This document shows positions 26,289-47,714 of a stretch of 64,000 bases of DNA, piece by piece. Source of the stretch: Snodgrassella alvi (GTDB taxonomy: Bacteria; Pseudomonadota; Gammaproteobacteria; Burkholderiales; Neisseriaceae); contig MEIR01000089.1 in assembly GCA_002777825.1 (NCBI GenBank), forward strand, positions 25,562 through 89,561, read 5' to 3'. Position numbers and translations under genes: made by a program. A model generated the notes under the pieces. That model saw nothing but the letters and a program-made list of their open reading frames with translations. It did no database searches and had not been told where the DNA came from. Position 1 is the first letter of the stretch, and each line of letters opens with the position of its first letter.

Positions 26289-27533
26289 TTATTTATCTTC
26301 TACCTTAGGAAAGTTCAATAATAAATTACGATAGTACTCGTACTGTTTTTGGCGTAATTCAATCTCACGCGGTAAACCCTCGGTGATTGAATTAGTGAGT
26401 ACATCGAATTTATCTAGGATTTTGACAATACGGTCTTGTTCCTCGAGGGAGGGGATGGGCAAGCGATATTTAAGAATAGCTTCTTTATTTCCACGTGGCA
26501 TTTTTGCGCCTTTAGAATGTTGCATATTGTATTCAAAAAAATTATCATTTGCTAAGATATGATATAAATATCTGTAGGTTAACAGATTATTTTTTAGACG
26601 AATGACTAAAACATCACCATTAGTGCCTCCAGAAGAATCTGCCTGCCAAATTTTTTTTAAGTACGGACGAATATTTCCAATTAAAATATCATTGGTGAGA
26701 TATTCTGTAAAACTTCCTTCTTTAGGCACGTGATTTGAATCAGTTTTTCCTGCTCGGTTTTGTAATAAATTATCAACACCTACATAATTTTTTTCATTAA
26801 GTTTATCAAAGCTGATTCGAGTATTTGAATAATTAGCTACTTCGCCTAAAGCCTTCCACTCAACCTCATCCTCTTTAAAGGTCAACAATTGATCACGATA
26901 ATAGTTGTATTGTTTTTTCCGTGCTGTAAGCTCTGCTGTAAGCTCTGCTGTAAGCTCTGCTGTAAGCTCTGTAAATATGTCTAAGATACGGGTAATTTCA
27001 GTCTGTATGTGTAGCGGAGGAATAGGAATTTGAATTTTTTTTAATTCACTCATTGGTAAACTAATAACTGGCGAACCAACAATTTTTTTACTATATTCAT
27101 TTACTATATATTTTGAATTAAATAAATGAGATAAGTATTTTGAAACAACTATTTCTTGAACAGGTTTTATTACATAGACTCCTTCTTTGATATTCCAATT
27201 TTTAGGTTTTTCATCAATAACAGCTGTTTTTCCTACCGTCCCTGTCCCCGAAAATAAGATGTCGCCAGCCTCTAAATTCGAGCGGTTGTTTATAAGCTCT
27301 AAAGCTTGGTTATTAATTTTATCAGTCTTATCAAGGAATACTATCTTTCCATTCTGAATTTCTCGAACAGTTATATAGAAATTCATAGCATCGGATGTAT
27401 TCAACTTAAAGTTATTTCGTGGATTTAGCCCCGTTTTCAAAGATTTTATTACTTCCCCTAATGGTTTCCACTCAACCGCTACCCCATCAAGTAATTTAGC
27501 GATACTATTGTGCATATTTAAATTGTTACTCAT
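26289..27533 (-). CDS. hsdS: Type I R-M specificity subunit (HsdS) with two target-recognition domains and a TAEL-repeat central conserved region
   Basis: 414 aa; duplicated TRD architecture; central ...ELTAELTAELTAELTA...; conserved C-terminal YEYYRNLLL-type motif. Confidence 0.85.
   Translation of the reverse strand: MSNNLNMHNSIAKLLDGVAVEWKPLGEVIKSLKTGLNPRNNFKLNTSDAMNFYITVREIQNGKIVFLDKTDKINNQALELINNRSNLEAGDILFSGTGTVGKTAVIDEKPKNWNIKEGVYVIKPVQEIVVSKYLSHLFNSKYIVNEYSKKIVGSPVISLPMSELKKIQIPIPPLHIQTEITRILDIFTELTAELTAELTAELTARKKQYNYYRDQLLTFKEDEVEWKALGEVANYSNTRISFDKLNEKNYVGVDNLLQNRAGKTDSNHVPKEGSFTEYLTNDILIGNIRPYLKKIWQADSSGGTNGDVLVIRLKNNLLTYRYLYHILANDNFFEYNMQHSKGAKMPRGNKEAILKYRLPIPSLEEQDRIVKILDKFDVLTNSITEGLPREIELRQKQYEYYRNLLLNFPKVEDK
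26923..26970 (-). repeat. Perfect 4x 12-bp tandem repeat (GCTGTAAGCTCT) encoding TAEL repeats in the HsdS central spacer
   Basis: four identical in-frame 12-mers read directly from sequence. Confidence 0.95.
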
Positions 27534-27733
27534 TTCTTGCGACTTTCCTGTTTCGCTTTGTTCGCTAATGCATTGATGGTTTCCAGATAAGATATTTCTA
27601 CCCCACTAGAAATATTTCGTGAACTATGTTGTTGAACTGTTCGGATTTTCCGAACAGTTGCTTTTTTAAAGTAAGCATCAACACGAACTTTTTGATTATT
27701 AACATGATAAATTTGAATGTGATTATTGCTCAT
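27530..27733 (-). CDS. Small hypothetical protein translationally coupled between hsdM and hsdS
   Basis: 67 aa; start overlaps hsdM stop and stop overlaps hsdS start (ATGA-type overlaps); basic C-terminus. Confidence 0.4.
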
Positions 27734-29274
27734 GCTTCAATCTCCGCCACAATTGCATCAATTTGGGCGCGTAAGCTATCAATTTTAGCTACAGTGTCTT
27801 TTAATTCAGCATTAAGCTGGGTGATATCAATAATTTCGCGGGTATCTTCGGCTTCCACATATGAGCTCACCGATAAATTATAGTCATTGTCGGCAATGGT
27901 TTGATTAGCAACCGATTTGGCAAAATATTCGACGTCTTGCTTGCTGGCAAATACTTGCACAATTTCTTCAATATGCTTATCAGTTAGGACATTATTATTG
28001 GTTTCTTTTTTAAACAGTTTGCTGGCATCAATAAATTGCGTGGTTCTGACGGTTTTGTTTTTCGCCAGCACCAAAATATTAACCGCAATCGAGGTACCAT
28101 AAAATAAGTTTGGTGCCAGTGATATCACGGTTTCAACAAAATTATTATCGATTAAATATTTACGAATTTTTTGTTCGGCGCCACCACGATAAAAAATACC
28201 CGGAAAGGTAACAATCGCCGCCCGCCCTCGCTCAGACAAGTAACTTAATGAATGCAGAATAAAGGCAAAATCGGCTTTTGATTTTGGCGCAAGTATGCCA
28301 GCGGGGGCATATCGTTCATCATTGATTAAGGTTGGGTTATCACTGCCAATCCATTTAATTGAATAAGGGGGATTGGAAACAATGGCATCAAATGGCTTTT
28401 CGTTGCCAAATTTAGGATTAAGTAGTGTATCCCCCAAGACAATTTCAAATTTATCGTAGTTGATGTTGTGTAAAAACATATTCATACGGGCAAGATTATA
28501 GGTGGTATGGTTAATTTCCTGACCATAGAATCCGTCCTCAATGATATGCTTATCAAACTGTTTTTTTGCCTGTAATAATAAAGAGCCTGAGCCTGCCGCT
28601 GGGTCATAGATTTTATTGATCTTTGTTTGATTATGTAAGGCTAATTGTGCGATTAATTTGGATACATTCGGCGGAGTGAAAAATTCTCCTCCTGATTTAC
28701 CGGCTTTAGAAGCATAATTAGAGATTAAATATTCATAAGCATCACCAAACACATCAATATGGTTATCTTCAAATTGCCCAAAATCCAGCTCGGCAATGCC
28801 ATTAAGTACGGCGGCTAGCCGTTTGTTTTTATCGGCTACGGTATTGCCTAAGCGGTTGCTGGTGGTGTCAAAATCGGCAAATAACCCTTTAATATCGCTT
28901 TCGGAAGGATAGCCGATAGCTGAACTTTCAATCGCATTAAAAATATTGGCCAAGTGGGTATTTAAGTCTTTATTGGTATTGGCCTCGGCAACGGTATGGC
29001 AGAATAATTGACTTGGATAGATAAAATAGCCTTTGGATTTAATGGCATCCTGTTTGATTTCGTCGGTGATAGCATCATCGGGAATTGATTTATAATCAAT
29101 ACTCTCGTCGCCTGCTTGCATATAATCAGCAAAGTTTTCACTAATAAAGCGATAAAATAAGGTGCCAAGTACATATTGTTTGAAATCCCAGCCATCAACC
29201 GCGCCTCTTACTTCGTCGGCAATTTTCCATATTTGGCGTTGTAATTGGTCTCGTTGCTGGATACTGATGGCCAT
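27730..29274 (-). CDS. hsdM: Type I R-M N6-adenine DNA methyltransferase subunit (HsdM)
   Basis: 514 aa; N-terminal HsdM_N domain, AdoMet motif [10 protein letters not shown] and catalytic NPPY ([11 protein letters not shown]). Confidence 0.9.
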
Positions 29275-29837: not shown

Positions 29838-29866
29838 AAAAAAGATGGCATAGCCATCCTTTTTCA
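29838..29866 (+). terminator. Diverged copy of gyrB terminator (AAAAAAGATGGCATAGCCATCCTTTTT)
   Basis: same hairpin as 20746-20775 with 2 substitutions; right-end direct repeat of the island. Confidence 0.7.
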
Positions 29867-29936: not shown

Positions 29937-31163
29937 TCAGCCTTTAACACAGATAACCTGACGTAACTGATGTCTGATTTCTACCAGTTCCTGCTGTGCC
30001 TGCATTACGGCATCGATATCTTTGTACGCCATGGGAATTTCGTCGATTACTTCTGTATCCTTACGACACTCTACATGGGCGGTAGCCTGCATCTGATCGG
30101 CAACGGTGAATCTCCTTTTGGCTTCGGCGCGGCTCATTACCCGCCCTGCACCATGCGAACAGGAATGAAAACTCTCGGTGTTTCCTAAACCGCGCACGAT
30201 ATAACTTTTTGCGCCCATTGAGCCCGGTATAATTCCCAGTTCGCCCTCGCGTGCAGAAACGGCACCTTTACGGGTAACAAAAACATTGTGGCCAAAATGC
30301 CGCTCTTTTTGTACATAGTTATGATGACAGTTTATTGTTTGCAGATGCGTGGTAAACGGCACATCAATCACTTGGCGTAATGCAGCAATGGTGTTGTGCA
30401 TCATTACTTCACGGTTTACGCGGGCAAAATCCTGCGCCCAATGCACAGCTTCCAGATAATCACGACAATATTCGGTGCCTTCGGCAAAATACGCCAGATC
30501 GTTATTGGGCAGGTAGGTATCAATAAAATACTTTTTCATTTCTTTTTGTGCCAGTTCACTGAAATATTTACCAATGGCATGGCCAATACCACGGGAACCA
30601 CTATGCAGCATAATCCATACCTGATCGGTTTCATCCAGACAAACTTCAATAAAATGATTACCGCTGCCAAGTGTTCCCAGATGATGCAAGCTATTGGCTT
30701 TTAAAAAGCGCGGATATTTGCTGGTGAGTTTTTCAAATCCTGGCAATAGCTGCTGCCAGTACTCTTGTACAATCGGCGGCGGATTATGCCAGCTACCTTT
30801 ATCATATTTTTTATTACCCGGAGTAGAACCATGCGGTACTGCCTTTTCAATCGCCAGCCGCAATGGCATCAGGTCTTCCGGCAAATCCTGCGCGGTAAGT
30901 GATAACTGCACCGCCATCATGCCACAGCCGATATCTACGCCAACCGCAGCAGGTATAACTGCACCAGTAGTAGGAATCACGCTACCTATGGTAGAGCCTC
31001 GTCCCAGATGCACATCCGGCATTACAGCAATATGCTTAAAAATAAAGGGCAGTTCTGCGGTTTGCAGCAATTGTGTTTTGGCGATATCTTCTACTGGTAC
31101 GCCTTTAGTCCACATTTTTACCGGACGGGTTTTATCTTCTTTTAATACTTCATATTCTTGCAT
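29937..31163 (-). CDS. rtcB: RNA-splicing ligase RtcB (3'-phosphate/5'-OH RNA ligase)
   Basis: 408 aa; conserved RtcB metal/GTP-binding motifs (HxGxG region SGNHF, CHHNY, GAGR). Confidence 0.9.
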   Translation of the reverse strand: MQEYEVLKEDKTRPVKMWTKGVPVEDIAKTQLLQTAELPFIFKHIAVMPDVHLGRGSTIGSVIPTTGAVIPAAVGVDIGCGMMAVQLSLTAQDLPEDLMPLRLAIEKAVPHGSTPGNKKYDKGSWHNPPPIVQEYWQQLLPGFEKLTSKYPRFLKANSLHHLGTLGSGNHFIEVCLDETDQVWIMLHSGSRGIGHAIGKYFSELAQKEMKKYFIDTYLPNNDLAYFAEGTEYCRDYLEAVHWAQDFARVNREVMMHNTIAALRQVIDVPFTTHLQTINCHHNYVQKERHFGHNVFVTRKGAVSAREGELGIIPGSMGAKSYIVRGLGNTESFHSCSHGAGRVMSRAEAKRRFTVADQMQATAHVECRKDTEVIDEIPMAYKDIDAVMQAQQELVEIRHQLRQVICVKG

Positions 31164-31213: not shown

Positions 31214-32794
31214 CTATTTTGCCTGAATGTTAATCAAACCATGTAATAACTGATCCAGACCGCCCACAACTGAAATTTTGTCGATGCGTTCAGCAATGCG
31301 TTCCAGTGTTTCCATTTCTTTCAAGCGTAAAGCCACTGGGTTATTTTCCATTACTCTGGCGGTATTCAGCAGGGAGCGGGTGGCGGAAGTTTCTTCGCGG
31401 CGGCGGATTACATTGGCCTGTGCTGCTTTTTCAGCCTCCACTACCTGCGCCAGTATGGTTTTCATGTCGCCCGGCAGAATAATGTCTTTCACACCTACGC
31501 TAATGGTTTCTATTCCGTAACCAGTCATATTTGCCTGCATATGCGCATTGATAACTTCATCAATCACATCCTTGTTTTCCAGCAATTCATCCAGCGTGCG
31601 GGTACCAATTGCTTCGCGTAAGGCAAATTGCAATTGCCGGTACAAGAGTTCCACAGGCTGGGCAGCTTTGGCGAAAGCAGTTAACACATCGGTATAGCAC
31701 CAGTTGGCTACTAGGTTGATACGCAGATTTACTTTGTCGCGGGTTAGTATTTCCTGCCCGGATATTTCTACCGTCTGCAAGCGTGTATCGACGATTTCAA
31801 CACTGATTTCGCGGTTAAAGCGCCAGTAAGCGGTGATGCCGGCATCCAGTAGCTGTTGTACTTGACCATTTACTTTTAATACACCAACATGATAAGCCGG
31901 TACCTGCGCAATCAGTATGCTGCTGTCTCCAATCACTTCTTTCTTACGTAATTTAGGCTGCAATAACTGCTGCACCATTTGTTCAGATAGCTGATAGCCA
32001 TCAGCCAGTTCTATGGTCTGCATGTGCTGCTTGCTGTTATTCTGCCAATATAATCGTTTTGTTCCCGGCGGCAGGATTTCCACCAGTAAATCATCTTCAA
32101 AGCGTAAACCGGCCTGATTGGCACCTACCTGCATCTGTACACAGTATTGCTGCATCTGCTCCGGTGCATTCTGCTCAATCGTGGCGGCCAGCAGGTCATC
32201 GATACGGTTATCCTGTAATTTGAATTTTCCCAGTACAAGCTTATGTTTGAATTCGCACAAGCCAATTACAGATGTGGGCGGAATAATCTGCACAAACTGG
32301 TTATCCACAAACAGAGTACCAATCTGTTCATCCACAAAATAATGCAGTTTTACATTGTCTATACCGGTAATCAGTCTGGCGGTATTTTTGGCCTGTATCA
32401 GTTCCAGTGCCACTTCATCCGGCAAACGGTAGCCCTGCTGCAAAGTCACTTTTTTAATCGATTGCGCTTTATAACTCTGCCAGTAAAGTGCTTTGGTGGC
32501 CGGCATAATGATCTCTACCAGTATGTCTTCTTCATAACGCAAAGCAATTTCATTATCCGCCACATGGACATAAAGACAGTATTTTTCTACTAGTTGCGGA
32601 TAAAAATTAAGCAGTTTTTCGGCGATGGCCGGCTCGATTTCAGTATCGGCCAGATCCACTAGATAATAGGTTATTGCTGAAAAGGGATCCCAGAAAGTAT
32701 GGCGGCCAGCGCTGACAATGGTATTTATCTCATCCCGTTTATTAACAACAGCCAGCTCACCTTTTTTTACATCGATTATGGTCAACATATTCAT
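31214..32794 (-). CDS. SPFH/band-7 (stomatin-like) domain protein with triplicated N-terminal SPFH-start-like module; co-operonic with rtcB
   Basis: C-terminal ...GIETISVGVKDIILPGDMKTILAQVVEAEKAAQANVIRRRE...NPVALRLKEMETLERIA matches stomatin/HflC core; three ~140-aa N-terminal repeats; SD GGAGA before MNMLTIID. Confidence 0.7.
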   Translation of the reverse strand: MNMLTIIDVKKGELAVVNKRDEINTIVSAGRHTFWDPFSAITYYLVDLADTEIEPAIAEKLLNFYPQLVEKYCLYVHVADNEIALRYEEDILVEIIMPATKALYWQSYKAQSIKKVTLQQGYRLPDEVALELIQAKNTARLITGIDNVKLHYFVDEQIGTLFVDNQFVQIIPPTSVIGLCEFKHKLVLGKFKLQDNRIDDLLAATIEQNAPEQMQQYCVQMQVGANQAGLRFEDDLLVEILPPGTKRLYWQNNSKQHMQTIELADGYQLSEQMVQQLLQPKLRKKEVIGDSSILIAQVPAYHVGVLKVNGQVQQLLDAGITAYWRFNREISVEIVDTRLQTVEISGQEILTRDKVNLRINLVANWCYTDVLTAFAKAAQPVELLYRQLQFALREAIGTRTLDELLENKDVIDEVINAHMQANMTGYGIETISVGVKDIILPGDMKTILAQVVEAEKAAQANVIRRREETSATRSLLNTARVMENNPVALRLKEMETLERIAERIDKISVVGGLDQLLHGLINIQAK

Positions 32795-33066
32795 TCTCCA
32801 GTCTATTGCAGCCAGCAAACAAGATGAACACAATCAAACGGATTAAGTAACGGAATAACAGGGGAAAGATTCATCATCATAACCTAATTATCGCCTGATT
32901 ATGATTAATAAATATTTTGCCTGCTATCCGGTTTTTTTACCCAAACAAAACAGCCATGGCTGAGTTTGCCCGGTTAACCGGTTTTTCCTGTGTCTAAGCT
33001 TTTACTACTGTGCTTATTCCCATTTACTGGCTGGTATTGCTTAATACGACAAGTATTACTATGTGA

Positions 33067-33139
33067 TTTTTGAAACAGGAATCGAACCTGTCACAGATTG
33101 GTTTGGTGCCAATTGCTCTATCCAGTGAGCTTTTCAAAA
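33067..33139 (-). ncRNA. tRNA-like element (cloverleaf with Trp-type CCA anticodon but A8, A33 and no encoded CCA) in leader of the rtcB operon
   Basis: minus strand: TTTTGAA-AA-GCTC-ACTGGATA-GAGC-A-ATTGG-CACCAAA-CCAAT-CTGTG-ACAGG-TTCGATT-CCTGT-TTCAAAA-A; perfect 7-bp acceptor, 5-bp anticodon and T stems; canonical T-loop. Confidence 0.55.
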
Positions 33140-33283
33140 ATACTCCGTGAAAGGGAGGTGTCTTGCATACTCAGGAATACATGTTGATAATGCAAATAGA
33201 TTAACCTTGCGGCGAATCCGGCAGCATTCGCTATGCACCTGACTGCCATATCAGACAGCATGTATTACAGACATAGGCTTTAT

Positions 33284-33299
33284 TGCAATTACTGTACCA
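33284..33299 (-). promoter_or_regulatory. Candidate sigma54 (-24/-12) promoter for the tRNA-like/SPFH/rtcB operon
   Basis: minus strand TGGTAC-AGTAA-TTGCA vs consensus TGGCAC-N5-TTGCW with exact GG-GC spacing; adjacent to divergent rtcR; AT-rich UAS region upstream. Confidence 0.35.
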
Positions 33300-33460
33300 A
33301 CAGGTAAATTTCTTTAGGAAATTTTTATAAACTATTATTTTTATTAATTAAATAATTAAATTTTAAAATTATTTGCCAGCTATTTATTGCTTAAATCCAA
33401 CATTATTTTATAAATTTATATATAATTTTATTTATATTTATAAACCAGTAGAACAATCTC

Positions 33461-35089
33461 ATGAACAGGAAAAACGTTGTATTCGGTTTTTTGGGCAATG
33501 TGCTTGACCAGCGCGGTAAAGGCAGAAAACGCTGGGGGCGCTGGCGGCCAACAGTTGATGTCTGTAATCATCCGGAATTGCCGGTATCTCGCTTTGAACT
33601 GCTTTATCACGTCAATGATAACGAGTTACTGGCTGAAATTATTCAGGATATTAAAACCATTGCCCCGGATACGCAGGTTAATCCGGTTGCAGTACATATA
33701 CATGACCCATGGGATTTTGAGGAGGTGTATACCTGTTTACTGGATTTAGCCAAAAGCTATCAATTTGATTATGAACAGGAGAATTATTATTTAAATATCA
33801 CTACCGGCACGCACGTTATGCAGATTTGCTGGTTTTTGCTGGCAGAATCACGCTTTTATCCGGCCAGACTGCTGCAATTATCGCCAACCAAAGGGGTAGC
33901 ACAGCCAGAAACGGTGTTAACTGAGCCGGCAGAGCATCAACAGCTATGCAGCCGCGGACAAATCAATATCATTGACCTGAATCTGAACCGCTACGACCAG
34001 ATTCTGACCCGCTTTCAGCAATACGCCGGCCAAGCTACTGAATTACTCAAATCCGGCATTGCCACCAGAAACCCGCATTACAATCAGCTAATTACTGAAA
34101 TAGAACAGGTAGCCAGCCGCTCGCATGCGCCTATCCTGCTATGCGGCCCTACCGGCGCCGGTAAATCTTTTCTTGCACGGCAAATTTACCAGCTTAAGCT
34201 GAATCAGCATCAGATAAGCGGCCAGTTTGTGGAAATTAACTGCGCTACTCTTACCGGTGATAATGCCATGTCCACTTTATTTGGTCATAGCAAAGGGGCT
34301 TATACGGGTGCCAGCATGGCCAGAAGCGGCCTGCTCAAACAGGCTGATAACGGCCTTTTGTTTCTGGATGAAATCGGCGAACTGGGATTAGATGAACAGG
34401 CTATCCTGCTCAAAGCCATTGAAGAAAAACATTTTTATCCGTTGGGCTCGGATAAACTGGTTTCCAGCCAGTTCCAGCTCATTGCCGGCACCAATAAAGA
34501 CTTAAAACAGGCAATTGCCTGTGGTGCATTCAGGGAAGATTTATACGCACGGATTAATTTATGGAGCTATCAACTGCCCGGGCTGGCAGAACGTAAAGAA
34601 GATATTGAACCAAATATTGATTTTGAGCTGGCACGCTATGCTAAGGAATATGGCACTATGCCACGCTTTAATCAGCAATCCAGAACCCGCTATGTAAATT
34701 TTGCCACTTCGGCTGCTGCACGATGGACGGGCAATTTCCGTGAGCTCACCGCTTCCATTACCCGCATGGCTACACTGGCCACGCAGGGTAATATCACTTT
34801 GACACAGGTTGAAGACGAAATTCAGCGCTTACAGCAACACTGGCAGCAGACAACACCCGCCGATGCACTGATTCCGGTTGAAATTGATGAATTCGACCGC
34901 TATCAGCTAGAAAAGGTGATTGAAGTATGCCGCAAAAGCCGAACTTTATCCGAGGCCGGCCGCTATCTGTTTGCGGTATCACGGGCACAGAAACAGCGTG
35001 CCAATGATGCCGACAGGCTGAAAAAATATCTGGCCAAGTTTGATTTAAGCTGGGAGCAGATAAAAGATAGTGCCTGTAGCAGCGATTAA
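33461..35089 (+). CDS. rtcR: Sigma54-dependent transcriptional activator RtcR (N-terminal CARF domain, AAA+ sigma54-interaction domain, C-terminal HTH)
   Basis: N-terminus MNRKNVVFGFLGNVLD matches RtcR CARF start; Walker A GPTGAGKS, GAFTGA-like GAFREDLYARINLW motif. Confidence 0.9.
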   Translation: MNRKNVVFGFLGNVLDQRGKGRKRWGRWRPTVDVCNHPELPVSRFELLYHVNDNELLAEIIQDIKTIAPDTQVNPVAVHIHDPWDFEEVYTCLLDLAKSYQFDYEQENYYLNITTGTHVMQICWFLLAESRFYPARLLQLSPTKGVAQPETVLTEPAEHQQLCSRGQINIIDLNLNRYDQILTRFQQYAGQATELLKSGIATRNPHYNQLITEIEQVASRSHAPILLCGPTGAGKSFLARQIYQLKLNQHQISGQFVEINCATLTGDNAMSTLFGHSKGAYTGASMARSGLLKQADNGLLFLDEIGELGLDEQAILLKAIEEKHFYPLGSDKLVSSQFQLIAGTNKDLKQAIACGAFREDLYARINLWSYQLPGLAERKEDIEPNIDFELARYAKEYGTMPRFNQQSRTRYVNFATSAAARWTGNFRELTASITRMATLATQGNITLTQVEDEIQRLQQHWQQTTPADALIPVEIDEFDRYQLEKVIEVCRKSRTLSEAGRYLFAVSRAQKQRANDADRLKKYLAKFDLSWEQIKDSACSSD

Positions 35090-41006: not shown

Positions 41007-41082
<76 letters not shown>

Positions 41083-45596: not shown

Positions 45597-47714
45597 TTAC
45601 TGGCTGCCGCTCTGTGCTGAAGTCTGTGCGGCCAGTTTGCTCAAGAGTTGCTTCACCTCCCGGGCAATGCGTTCGACTACTGCGGTTGGATAGCGGTGTG
45701 CCTGATAGGTAATTATCATGCTCAGGCTATGCTGGTTGTTAATCTGGTTTTCCATGATTTCAAAGTGCAGGCCGAACATGGATTCGTTACGTTCAGGCAG
45801 TATTTGCCGGTATGGGATGGCACCTTGCGGAGTGTTTAGCTGGCCATTTAAGGCGTTGTTTGTGTGGATATGAATGTAAACATCAAACATTAAGCCCTGA
45901 TTATCGGGGATGCCTAAAGCCTGCTGGATATGATTAATCGGGATATCGGCATACTCTATGGACTCGTTGATTTGTTTGCTGGTGTCGGCCAGTAATGAGG
46001 TGAATGGTTGCTGCGGATTAAAGCGGATACGGTGCGCTACCATGGTGGTAAAGTAGCCAACGGTATCGAAATAGTTGGGGTCGGTACGGCCTGAAGCAGA
46101 GGTACCGATTACGATTTCGGTTAAATTACCCTCTTTTTGCAGTACGGTGGCAATGGCGGTATAAAACACGCTGAATATAGAGGCATGGTGTTTTTTGGTA
46201 AAGGCTGAGATGTTGCGATGGAAGGCTGAATCGAATTTGATTTCCAGCCATTCAATCTGTGGAGCGGTATTTTGCGATGCTGTCGCGACTGTCGAATTTA
46301 AAGTCAGTCCTTTTACAGCTCCTTGCAGATGCTTGCACCAGTAATCGAGATGTTGCTGGTTAATGCCGTTTTGCTGCTGCATGCGGGCAAATTCGTGAAT
46401 GCTGGGAACGCTGTTCGGCCAGACGGGTGCTTTGCCTTGCAGCCGTGCTGCATAGGCTATATTTAAATCGGCCATGATGGTGTTTAAAGACCACTCGTCT
46501 ATTACCATGTGATGCACCAGAAACGATAAAATCGTGTTGCCATTGTGTGCTTTTAACAGGCGGATTCGGAGTGGCAGTTCGCGTGTGAGATCGAATTTAT
46601 AGGCTGCTTCAGTAGCTAAGGTGGCATCTTTGCTGTCGCTGCTCGGCAAGAACCATTGATGCTGTTTAAGCTCGGTAATGGGTACGGTATATTGCAAGGT
46701 TTGTTGGTGTGAGGTTTTAAACAGGGTGCGTAATCCAACGTGGCGGATAATTAAATCATTAAATGCCTGATGTAAGGCTTCTTCATTAACCGGCTGCTGA
46801 AATTCTATAGCGAACGGTAGGTTATAAACGGGGCTGAAATCAAAAGCGCTGTAAGCCTGCCATAAAAAATCCTGCGCCAGTGTTAAGGGTGCCTGTTGTT
46901 CAGGCTGTATCTGGGTTGCGGAAGCAACTGGCTGCTCTTGCTGCGCAATATTGGCCAGTGCACGGGCGGATGGTGATTTAAAGAAATCATTGAAGTTCAG
47001 TTTAATGCCATGGTTGTTCTGTAAGTTGCCAATAGCTCGGGTGGCCAGCAGTGAATGGCCGCCAAAATCAAAAAAGTCATCGTCAAGGGTCATATTCGGT
47101 TCAGCCAGTGTGCTTCTGAACTCTGTCAGTATGATGCTGGCCAGTGCTGCTACGTTGGTATGCTGTGTTTTCTTGGCTGGTGCCGGATTTAAACTGCTTA
47201 AGTCTACTGGTGTGAGCTCGAGCTGATGTTCTGAACCGCTGTAGTTGTTGTAGCTGGTGCGGATTTCTTTGATTAATCCATTCAGTGTGAATTGTTCCTC
47301 AAGTATGGGATGCAAGCGAAGTGCCAGAATTACGCTGTTTTCTGTGCTGATTACTGTTGCCAGAAAAGGCGGGGTGATTTCGGGCTGCCAGTGTTGCTGT
47401 GCCAATGTAGATAATAGTGCAGTAACCTGCCCTTGCGCTGCTTGCTCATTCTGTACGCAGGTTGTCCAATCTGTATCGGGGTATTTGTATAAATCGCCGT
47501 CTTCGGTGAATTCATAGCGGGTATTCAATTCTGTATGCGTTGCCAGCAGGCTGTGGATACTTTTATGCAGGATGGCTGAATTGGGATATGGATTCAGCAG
47601 CCATGCTGCAAGCTGATATTTCACTTGTTCTGGTTCTTGTAACTGTTGCATCCAGATATATTCTTCACGCTCATTGGCTAAAGATGGTGCTGTTGCTGTA
47701 TTTGTATCTGACAT
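45597..47714 (-). CDS. NRPS PCP-condensation didomain protein (AngM-like)
   Basis: thiolation motif FFDFGGHSLLATRAI; condensation motif HHMVIDEWS. Confidence 0.8.
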   Translation of the reverse strand: MSDTNTATAPSLANEREEYIWMQQLQEPEQVKYQLAAWLLNPYPNSAILHKSIHSLLATHTELNTRYEFTEDGDLYKYPDTDWTTCVQNEQAAQGQVTALLSTLAQQHWQPEITPPFLATVISTENSVILALRLHPILEEQFTLNGLIKEIRTSYNNYSGSEHQLELTPVDLSSLNPAPAKKTQHTNVAALASIILTEFRSTLAEPNMTLDDDFFDFGGHSLLATRAIGNLQNNHGIKLNFNDFFKSPSARALANIAQQEQPVASATQIQPEQQAPLTLAQDFLWQAYSAFDFSPVYNLPFAIEFQQPVNEEALHQAFNDLIIRHVGLRTLFKTSHQQTLQYTVPITELKQHQWFLPSSDSKDATLATEAAYKFDLTRELPLRIRLLKAHNGNTILSFLVHHMVIDEWSLNTIMADLNIAYAARLQGKAPVWPNSVPSIHEFARMQQQNGINQQHLDYWCKHLQGAVKGLTLNSTVATASQNTAPQIEWLEIKFDSAFHRNISAFTKKHHASIFSVFYTAIATVLQKEGNLTEIVIGTSASGRTDPNYFDTVGYFTTMVAHRIRFNPQQPFTSLLADTSKQINESIEYADIPINHIQQALGIPDNQGLMFDVYIHIHTNNALNGQLNTPQGAIPYRQILPERNESMFGLHFEIMENQINNQHSLSMIITYQAHRYPTAVVERIAREVKQLLSKLAAQTSAQSGSQ

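Follow-up and report, generated by a model that had tools for sequence, protein, structure and literature searches.

We investigated a 64,000-nucleotide (nt) stretch of Snodgrassella alvi DNA (GenBank assembly GCA_002777825.1, contig MEIR01000089.1, positions 25,562 to 89,561; called the window throughout, with its first letter as position 1). In it, a tRNA-like cloverleaf lies on the minus strand at 33067–33139, upstream of the genes for a slipin, a protein of the SPFH/Band-7 type, and for the RNA ligase RtcB. We are highly confident that this element belongs to the class named b7a-tRNA, for band-7-associated tRNA. The cloverleaf fold is far beyond chance and under selection, and comparison with related loci indicates that it is one module of a conserved, structured leader RNA of ~460 nt. 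Taking the evidence as a whole, the explanation we lean towards is a b7a-type tRNA mimic in the leader of a sigma-54-dependent operon, likely serving as the RNA partner of slipin-RtcB repair.

The central idea is not new, as the class is already in the literature as a prediction. Wang et al. (10.1101/312249) describe that some bacteria encode RtcB beside a Band-7 protein and a predicted noncoding RNA resembling tRNA, the b7a-tRNA, which according to their summary was predicted by Burroughs and Aravind (Nucleic Acids Res 2016). In the same account, b7a-tRNA is proposed to be functionally redundant with the Y RNA YrlA and is not experimentally validated. A 2026 preprint (PMC13404743) cites Burroughs and Aravind for the statement that bacterial homologues of the major vault protein (MVP), together with the noncoding RNAs of their operons, are implicated in RNA repair. 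The targets and the targeting of RtcB repair in bacteria are still unsettled, and b7a-tRNA has been a bare prediction since 2016. The system is real, widespread, and uncharacterised, and the window holds a minimal form of it, consisting of rtcR, one leader RNA, slipin, and rtcB, with related copies in Pseudomonas, Burkholderia, and E. coli. It is also relevant to a link that has been proposed between RNA-repair operons of bacteria and the vault and Ro ribonucleoproteins of eukaryotes. The possible novelty lies in how extensive and modular the leader RNA around the cloverleaf is. The hypervariable loop, the copy number (from a T-arm hairpin only to two cloverleaves), and the ~460-nt covarying leader may go beyond the 2016 description.

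The cloverleaf and its conservation in close relatives

Read on the minus strand from 33139 to 33067, the element consists of an acceptor strand TTTTGAA, the linker AA, a D arm GCTC-ACTGGATA-GAGC, a single A, an anticodon arm ATTGG-CACCAAA-CCAAT, a variable loop CTGTG, a T arm ACAGG-TTCGATT-CCTGT, the closing acceptor strand TTCAAAA, and the discriminator A, followed by TCA. The stems are 7 base pairs (bp) in the acceptor, 4 bp in the D arm, and 5 bp in both the anticodon and T arms, with a 7-nt anticodon loop, a 5-nt variable loop, and the T loop TTCGATT. An earlier description made from the sequence alone (the sequence-only reading) had proposed this complete minus-strand cloverleaf, and direct reading found each stem and loop that it listed. 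The same description had singled out an A at position 8, an A at position 33, and an A-TCA end in place of CCA. All three are present in the window copy, at A33132, A33107, and the discriminator A33067 with its TCA tail at 33066–33064; the "anticodon" CCA occupies 33106–33104.

ARAGORN calls a tRNA-Trp(cca) at 33065–33140 (minus strand). A local scan with the Rfam tRNA model (RF00005) scores the cloverleaf at 49.0 bits (E = 2.9e-9, gathering score 29) over 33067–33139, minus strand. An Rfam scan of the full 64 kb at the gathering score with default speed filters missed the element, which the local scan then recovered, and reported tRNA-Phe alone. This tRNA-Phe(GAA), at 41007–41079 on the plus strand, is an ordinary tRNA and scores 72.4 bits on the Rfam tRNA model. 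No tmRNA was found in the window by ARAGORN.

Next, we compared the window copy with ten close relatives obtained through exact-protein look-ups. They come from Snodgrassella lineages, Gilliamella, Entomomonas, and one Neisseria species, and their slipins are 58–97% identical to that of the window. The window slipin is 97% identical to that of Snodgrassella communis, which points to a bee-gut Neisseriaceae. The acceptor stem TTTTGAA/TTCAAAA is essentially constant in all ten, with a single mismatch in one. The other stems change in a compensatory manner, from GCTC/GAGC to GTTC/GAAC in the D stem, from ATTGG/CCAAT to ATCGA/TCGAT and GTTGA/TCAAC in the anticodon stem, and from ACAGG/CCTGT to GTAGG/CCTAC and ATAGG/CCTAT in the T stem. 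Over the 11 close sequences, 99.6% of stem cells pair, both partners have changed in seven pairs, and the covariation of 0.303, against 0.160 in shuffled alignments, is reached by none of 500 shuffles. It is this near-complete pairing, together with the seven pairs changed on both sides, that places the cloverleaf under selection.

These comparisons bear directly on whether the element is a decaying tRNA pseudogene or an integration-site remnant without function. The non-canonical bases at positions 8 and 33 and the missing CCA in this strain would fit such a remnant. However, the stems are kept by compensatory changes in close and distant relatives, the position relative to the promoter and slipin is fixed, and no integrase or repeat context was seen around it; synteny, moreover, excludes that paralogous real tRNAs were aligned by mistake. 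We consider the chance of a functionless remnant negligible. The suggestion of the sequence-only reading that this could be a decayed tRNA-Trp fails for the same reason, as its relatives show maintained stems rather than random decay; its proposal that homologous intergenic regions be searched for compensatory changes was borne out in both close and distant relatives.

The three departures from tRNA are not defining marks of the element. All ten close relatives have U8, even the one with a 97% identical slipin, and A33 occurs in none but the three closest lineages, all Snodgrassella. CCA is encoded after the discriminator in six of the ten relatives, one of which (L084) has G73-CCA. Loops in the window's clade read CACCAAA, TACCAAA, TCAGGAA, CACGGGA, CTAGGGA, TTAGGGA, TTTCGAC, TTATTAA, and CACCA.

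We also considered whether the element is a functional tRNA-Trp of unusual form, or an isoacceptor or suppressor specific to stress that is expressed along with the repair operon. The ARAGORN call, the 7-nt loop, and the combination of G73-CCA with the same CCA triplet in L084 speak for it. G73 is an identity element for bacterial tryptophanyl-tRNA synthetase (TrpRS), and U33 is universal in tRNAs. The window copy has A73 and A33 instead, its acceptor stem is rich in U1-A72-type pairs, and its Rfam score is 23 bits below that of the neighbouring tRNA-Phe. Furthermore, the "anticodon" differs among orthologous copies: the triplets among the close relatives are CCA, AGG, CGG, AGG, UCG, AUU, or none, and one copy has a 5-nt loop. 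A functional tRNA-Trp is therefore very improbable.

The family across related loci

We collected 80 related proteobacterial loci, one per species, by aligning slipin homologues. In ~65 of them, ARAGORN and a covariance model detected a tRNA-like element on the same strand, 200–350 nt upstream of slipin. The order divergent RtcR, leader, slipin, RtcB, often continued by an RlaP nucleotidyltransferase, holds in 65/80 loci, and RtcB follows slipin in most. Throughout Beta- and Gammaproteobacteria, the element keeps a fixed place with respect to the promoter and to slipin. When 52 elements were aligned with MAFFT, pairing was seen in 92% of stem cells compared to 74% in shuffles, and both sides had changed in 16 of 21 pairs. 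The covariation value is 0.489; shuffled alignments give 0.169 (0/500 shuffles reach the observed value) and controls with slid pairing partners 0.06–0.11.

A covariance model, R2, was built from 50 elements of a GC-rich clade without the window copy or its own AT-rich clade. It scores the window copy at 71.2 bits (E = 2.5e-18), which is 22 bits above the Rfam tRNA score of the same copy. Real tRNAs score 33–69 bits on R2, and an attempt to separate the family from true tRNAs by covariance model alone failed, as tRNA-Phe of the window reaches 68.7 bits. Since R2 also scores real tRNAs, membership of the class rests on synteny and homology combined.

For the class definition we used the description in 10.1101/312249. 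The window element is a tRNA-like cloverleaf directly upstream of a Band-7/SPFH gene on the same strand, with a linked RtcB, and it is homologous to elements at the same position elsewhere. It shares structure, position, and homology with copies in ~65 other genomes, and nothing contradicts its membership. Within the class, the window copy is atypical in its A8, its A33, and its full 7-bp, A/U-rich acceptor stem.

What the family preserves is best seen in 72 slipin-adjacent elements. Their anticodon loops are 2–8 nt long, with 7 nt in only 29 of the 72, and come in 50 distinct sequences, including GAAA and UUCG tetraloops. The full 7-bp acceptor stem is found in 11/72 and a following CCA in 4/72; the outer three acceptor pairs are unpaired in 31–62% of members, so that the stem is often 4–5 bp. 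Position 8 is U in 61 elements, A in seven, and C in four. Per-column entropy is 0.04 bits in the D stem and 0.29 bits in the T loop, compared with 0.66–1.82 bits over the seven positions of the anticodon loop and 1.27–1.82 bits at the three anticodon positions. Judging by these alignments, selection maintains the D stem and its G18G19-type D loop, the T stem-loop, the inner acceptor pairs, and an anticodon helix that stays closed. It maintains neither the anticodon loop nor the 3′ end, on which decoding and charging depend. Because the anticodon loop varies from 2 to 8 nt with 50 different sequences, we conclude that the b7a-type family does not decode. The sequence-only reading had likewise held that this is not a decoding tRNA, and homologues that keep their stems and not their anticodon loop agree with it.

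The likeness to elongator tRNAs is nevertheless considerable. The window element shares with them the full cloverleaf, the elbow nucleotides, the T loop TTCGAnT, and the 5-nt variable loop, with D and T arms most like the tRNA-Phe type. It differs in A8, A33, and A73, and the family differs in a loop unconserved among orthologues, an acceptor stem of often 4–5 bp, and a CCA that is usually absent. The D arm and variable region of tRNA-Phe are close to the b7a-tRNA consensus. As tRNA-Phe scores almost as high as true members on R2, the comparison suggests that the mimic descends from an ordinary tRNA gene of the tRNA-Phe type. There is also a consequence for genome annotation. ARAGORN labels members of the family as Gly, Met, Ser, Thr, Ile, Val, Asn, Cys, Phe, Leu, stop, or "undetermined," and elements called tRNA genes with such arbitrary anticodons should be excluded from the decoding set of a genome.

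The cloverleaf lies in the leader of a slipin-rtcB operon

A sigma-54 (−24/−12) promoter, TGGTACagtaaTTGCA, was identified by pattern match at 33284–33299 on the minus strand, with its −12 GC 146 nt upstream of the cloverleaf. A site of the form TGGCAC-N5-TCGCW is found 117–201 nt upstream of the tRNA-like element in 58/70 related loci. The pattern alone is not significant in 64 kb (two found versus 0.95 expected), and the evidence is its conserved position. The second perfect match, TGGCACttcgcTTGCA, is at 47311–47326 on the minus strand.

The 3′ end of the cloverleaf is 278 nt before the slipin ATG at 32788, on the same strand, with a spacing of about 255–350 nt in related loci, and no intrinsic terminator was found between them. 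With the promoter upstream and no terminator before slipin, the cloverleaf would lie inside the leader of an RtcR-controlled slipin-rtcB transcript. The missing terminator also led us to reject the cloverleaf as a separate small gene. The slipin gene (31214–32788, minus strand, identified by Pfam) encodes a 524-amino-acid SPFH/Band-7 protein and has a Shine-Dalgarno sequence GGAG at 32799–32796. The last gene of the operon is rtcB (29937–31163, minus strand; Pfam RtcB, 1.9e-127), which encodes the ligase that joins 3′-phosphate and 5′-OH ends. A terminator-like hairpin, GATGGC-TAT-GCCATC followed by TTTTTT, was recognised by eye at 29838–29858 (minus strand), 79 nt past the rtcB stop. Close relatives have Band_7 and RtcB only and then unrelated genes, and the operon appears to consist of slipin and rtcB only. 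The RtcA cyclase gene is absent from this operon and from those of the close relatives, the search having covered the operons alone. In one related locus (L012), where RtcA was looked for downstream of RlaP, the open reading frame proved to be a DUF1176 protein.

Divergent from the leader lies rtcR (33461–35089, plus strand), which encodes a sigma-54-dependent activator with an N-terminal RtcR (CARF-type) domain (Pfam RtcR 2.2e-70, Sigma54_activat 4.3e-49, and AAA_lid_14). A divergent RtcR homologue is present in 65/80 related loci. The features of an RtcR/sigma-54 rtc operon, namely the RtcR activator, the −24/−12 promoter, and rtcB, are all present in the window. Between the rtcR start and the promoter, at 33408–33444, there is an AT-rich repeat block, TTTATAAATATAAATAAAATTATATATAAATTTATAA, with half-sites of the TTTATAAA type, which is conserved across the alignment of the AT-rich clade. 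This block is a candidate upstream activating sequence, or binding site, for RtcR.

A modular leader RNA of ~460 nt

We aligned the whole promoter-to-slipin interval and predicted consensus folds. In order from 5′ to 3′, the leader comprises a 5′ domain, a T-arm-like hairpin, the cloverleaf, a short hairpin, a junction motif, and a rod of 220–250 nt. Because the consensus structures were predicted on the same alignments in which pairs were counted, the contrast with slid controls is inflated; pair changes on both sides are still high. Within Rfam 15, no family other than the tRNA model covers any part of the leader, in the window or in the related loci scanned.

The 5′ domain (33140–33273, minus strand) was delimited from alignments and the GC-clade consensus fold, with its 5′ end placed from the promoter. 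It contains the hairpin GCUGUC-UGAUAU-GGCAGU at 33259–33242 and a conserved segment GGUGC...CGAAUGC, in which the invariant GGUGC closes a second helix. The consensus of 25 GC-clade leaders has 91% of its cells paired and changes on both sides in 20 of 29 pairs; covariation is 0.46 against 0.21 when shuffled. The fold of this domain in the window sequence is weak when taken alone (z = −1.3). Just upstream of the cloverleaf is a hairpin with a 7-nt loop, CUCC-CUUUCAC-GGAG in the window (33157–33143). Its counterpart is the T-arm sequence CCGGGTTCGATTCCCGG in GC-rich genomes and TTAGGTTCGAATCCTAA in the Neisseria relative, and in Pseudomonas a complete second cloverleaf takes its place.

Immediately 3′ of the cloverleaf, the minimum free energy fold of the window and a by-eye alignment place a short hairpin, UAAUAC-UUGUC-GUAUUA, at 33042–33058 (minus strand). 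It lies outside the predicted consensus structure. Its GC-clade counterpart is CUGUCC...GGACAG, with paired substitutions TGTCC/GGACA, AGCCC/GGGCT, and TGCCC/GGCAG recognised by eye. The junction motif, GCAAUACC in the window (33033–33040, minus strand) and GCAGUACC in most other genomes, consists of nearly invariant columns and is predicted to be single-stranded. It could pair with the invariant GGUGC (33224–33228), as a pseudoknot or as an alternative to the predicted GGUGC/GYAUGCC helix; both sides are invariant.

The rod is a long irregular hairpin at 32812–33034 (minus strand), predicted from the window fold as well as from the AT-clade and GC-clade consensus. Its helices are 33034–33026/32820–32812, 32984–32974/32846–32836, and 32933–32908/32874–32849, with a tip hairpin at 32973–32968/32946–32941 and a side hairpin at 33016–33012/32999–32995. 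The window sequence folds with −80.9 kcal/mol (z = −4.3). In the AT clade, pairing reaches 93% of cells, both sides differ in 19 of 50 pairs, and the covariation value is 0.363 against 0.187; the corresponding values for 22 GC-clade loci are 92.8%, 26 of 37, and 0.499 against 0.216. The 3′ end of the rod is 13 nt before the slipin Shine-Dalgarno sequence.

Two palindromes in this region, CCGGTTAACCGG at 32981–32970 and CAGCCATGGCTG at 32962–32951, had been noted earlier as possible additional RNA or DNA regulatory sites. Both are where they were reported, and our alignments indicate that they are by-products of the rod helices. The first is split in the predicted fold: its left part, AAACCGGTTAA, pairs over a long range with TTAATCCGTTT (32846–32836), and its right part begins the tip hairpin. 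Only its core, AACCGGTTAAC, is conserved, and the pairing with TTAATCCGTTT tolerates G-U changes. The second forms the non-conserved apical loop of the tip hairpin and is replaced by unrelated sequence in the 97% relative. We therefore rejected the palindromes as DNA operator sites, as the second is gone in that relative and the core of the first is engaged in long-range RNA pairing. A 25-codon open reading frame within the rod, ATGATGATGAAT... (32880–32803), was also rejected, because L084–L086 and L087 have no ATG at the aligned start and the region is conserved as paired RNA; this comparison concerns the aligned start-codon position in those four loci only.

Variation of the leader among lineages

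Several Pseudomonas loci have two cloverleaves in tandem. Loci from enterobacteria, Proteus, and Providencia lack a full cloverleaf and retain the sigma-54 promoter, the 5′ hairpins, a single T-arm-like hairpin, and the rod core GCAGGCAAAA...TTCCCCTG. Their leaders, and those of some Pseudomonas, are ~100 nt shorter and carry only a degenerate tRNA-like or T-arm hairpin, TCGGGTTCGAWTCCCGA (loci L008, L009, L025, L049, L050, L053, L056, L057, L068, L070, L011, L007, and L058). Judging from these alignments, the constant parts of the leader are T-loop/elbow-type hairpins and the rod, and the complete cloverleaf is frequent and not obligatory. Comparison thus marks the tRNA elbow, the closed anticodon helix, the rod, and the junction motif as the parts under selection, with the anticodon loop and the 3′ end free.

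In E. coli, a cassette of slipin and RlaP (L001, 4600–6925) is found beside P2-like tail genes. The cassette has a sigma-54 promoter of its own, TGGCACGTTTCTCGCA, and no adjacent RtcR or RtcB, and its leader keeps the T-arm-like hairpin and the rod without a full cloverleaf. Of 5,426 complete E. coli genomes, 1,635 contain this leader, which RefSeq leaves without any RNA annotation.

Burkholderiales have a further locus type without RtcR or a sigma-54 site, in which cloverleaf, slipin, and RtcB follow an array of 5–10 ordinary tRNA genes (L059, 4130–10324, as well as L052, L054, L072, L081, and L083). L059 is the only one of these in which open reading frames were scanned; there, an HNH endonuclease gene separates the array from the cloverleaf, and RtcB is followed by an FtsH-like AAA/M41 protease. 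These loci are reminiscent of the TrcR regulon of Anabaena, where translational stress derepresses a tRNA operon, rtcB, the slipin alr0740, and an HNH gene together (PMC10272220).

The AT-rich leader of the window (32780–33460) is common to Snodgrassella and a Neisseria species, which are Betaproteobacteria, and to Gilliamella and Entomomonas, which are Gammaproteobacteria (L004 and L088–L095). The comparison suggests that the whole cassette has been transferred horizontally between distant bacteria, several of them insect-gut genera. Another relative (L087, slipin 77% identical) has lost both rtcR and the sigma-54 promoter, and its leader directly adjoins a nucleotidyltransferase gene; the cloverleaf and rod are intact.

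Relation to YrlA and a possible role in RNA repair

The closest known parallel is the rsr-yrlBA-rtcBA operon of Salmonella, in which the Y RNA genes yrlA and yrlB lie between an RtcR-dependent sigma-54 promoter and rtcB (10.1101/312249, PMC7790460). As with YrlA and YrlB and their partner Rsr (Ro60), the window has a tRNA mimic between an RtcR-dependent promoter and rtcB, beside a putative scaffold protein. However, YrlA has no anticodon arm, and its tRNA-like domain is set inside the Ro-binding stem formed by its 5′ and 3′ ends, whereas the window element is a complete closed cloverleaf followed by a separate rod. The YrlA model (RF02553) gave no match at E ≤ 10 in 32600–33600 and none at the gathering score in ten related loci; a sub-threshold match in L047 reached 21 bits against a gathering score of 69. 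No TROVE/Ro60 gene is present among the eight neighbouring open reading frames. With no RF02553 match, no Ro60 neighbour, and a different topology, membership of the YrlA/Y RNA family was rejected. The sequence-only reading had invoked a tRNA mimic as in bacterial Y RNAs and proposed a YrlA covariance-model search; that search came back empty, and what survives of the comparison is a mimic in the same operon position as yrlA and yrlB, outside the YrlA family.

RtcR is switched on by 5′ tRNA halves bearing a 2′,3′-cyclic phosphate, and RtcB reseals such ends (PMC7790460). In the mechanism we propose, tRNA damage would switch the operon on, and the RtcR-activated sigma-54 promoter would transcribe a leader with the cloverleaf ahead of slipin and rtcB. 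The leader, or a processed part of it, would then bind an oligomer of the slipin, an SPFH protein that is vault-protein-like. The tRNA-shaped handles could recruit or organise RtcB and tRNA-recognising factors and so assemble, target, or regulate the ligase. A parallel is YrlA with Ro60/Rsr in rsr-yrlBA-rtcBA, for which a role of this kind has been proposed. We regard this cofactor mechanism as plausible and put it a little short of an even chance. A bolder version, which we offer only tentatively, is that the leader is an uncatalogued multi-domain RNA subunit of a bacterial vault-like particle of soluble slipin oligomer and RtcB, the tRNA modules being handles that bring in the ligase or broken tRNAs.

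The slipin itself shows no clear N-terminal membrane segment, an uncommon trait among SPFH proteins. Its AlphaFold model (mean predicted local distance difference test, pLDDT, 84.7) has two repeated beta-rich modules of ~145 amino acids each, followed by the SPFH domain and a 60-residue helix. The N-terminal half is 25–30% identical to the region that follows it by tblastn, which marks an internal duplication. The predicted model matches the cage-forming proteins stomatin, HflK, and MVP. When the N-terminal half was searched alone, no support for MVP-like N-terminal repeats was found. Our literature search for experiments on b7a-tRNA, on slipin or SPFH proteins with RtcB, or on PA4582 returned none. 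The only relevant items were a 3.2-fold induction of PA4582 by H2O2 and a published account of the P. aeruginosa operon that mentions no RNA.

Several points weigh against a tRNA mimic acting as the RNA partner of slipin and RtcB. Our literature search returned no expression, processing, or binding study of any b7a-tRNA member, and real tRNAs are not told apart from the family by the covariance models, tRNA-Phe being the case in point on R2. The full cloverleaf is dispensable in some lineages. Because some lineages have none and Pseudomonas has two, it may not be the essential protein-binding part. Finally, the absent terminator before slipin fits a purely cis-acting 5′ untranslated region (UTR) equally well.

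Such a cis-acting leader would be an RNase P/RNase Z-type processing signal, or a structured 5′ UTR that governs how stable the slipin-rtcB transcript is or how well it is translated, perhaps as a response to damage or RtcB. Apart from the uninterrupted path from the cloverleaf to a rod ending close to the Shine-Dalgarno sequence, the conserved distance from cloverleaf to slipin start (about 255–280 nt) agrees with it. So do the leader of L087, intact despite the deletion of rtcR and the promoter, and the window's clade, where a constant 7-bp acceptor stem and A/G-CCA in six of ten relatives look as expected for RNase P and 3′-end processing. Across the family, however, the frequently unpaired outer acceptor pairs and the absence of CCA in most members are poor for RNase P or CCA recognition. 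Moreover, a processing signal would not need a covarying structure of ~460 nt containing as many as two cloverleaves, and the Shine-Dalgarno sequence is not sequestered in the predicted fold. We consider a purely cis-acting leader rather unlikely.

A different role would be that of a sentinel or decoy. The mimic would be cut by anticodon-loop nucleases, its cyclic-phosphate 5′ fragment would feed back on the CARF domain of RtcR, and RtcB would reseal it and so end the signal; or the mimic would simply soak up the nuclease. In Salmonella, cleavage of tRNA-Trp(CCA) falls between two adenines, after position 36 (PMC7790460), and the loop CACCAAA of the window keeps CCA|AA. The highly conserved 5′ half (UAGCUCA..GGUAGAGCA) also resembles the 5′ halves of many tRNAs. 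Against this stand the ~60% of members whose loops are 2–6 nt, including the GAAA and UUCG tetraloops, which would be poor mimics of an anticodon loop, and a loop sequence that varies even among close relatives. In addition, the RNA would be made only after the promoter fires, so it is not the primary sensor. A sentinel or decoy is improbable in our view, and an RNA partner of slipin-RtcB repair remains the reading we prefer.

Neighbouring genes

By Pfam, the eight neighbouring open reading frames encode RtcR, slipin, RtcB, HsdM, HsdS, a nucleotidyltransferase, LigA, and ZipA. A megablast search of the region against E. coli genomes gave no match, and the slipin protein had no match at 1e-20 in a phage collection, with no sign of phage carriage there. 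Past the terminator-like hairpin of rtcB are ~550 nt of short gene fragments, one frame of which resembles an antitoxin-like peptide. Beyond these, on the minus strand, lies a type I restriction-modification pair, with HsdM at 27730–29274 and HsdS at 26289–27533.

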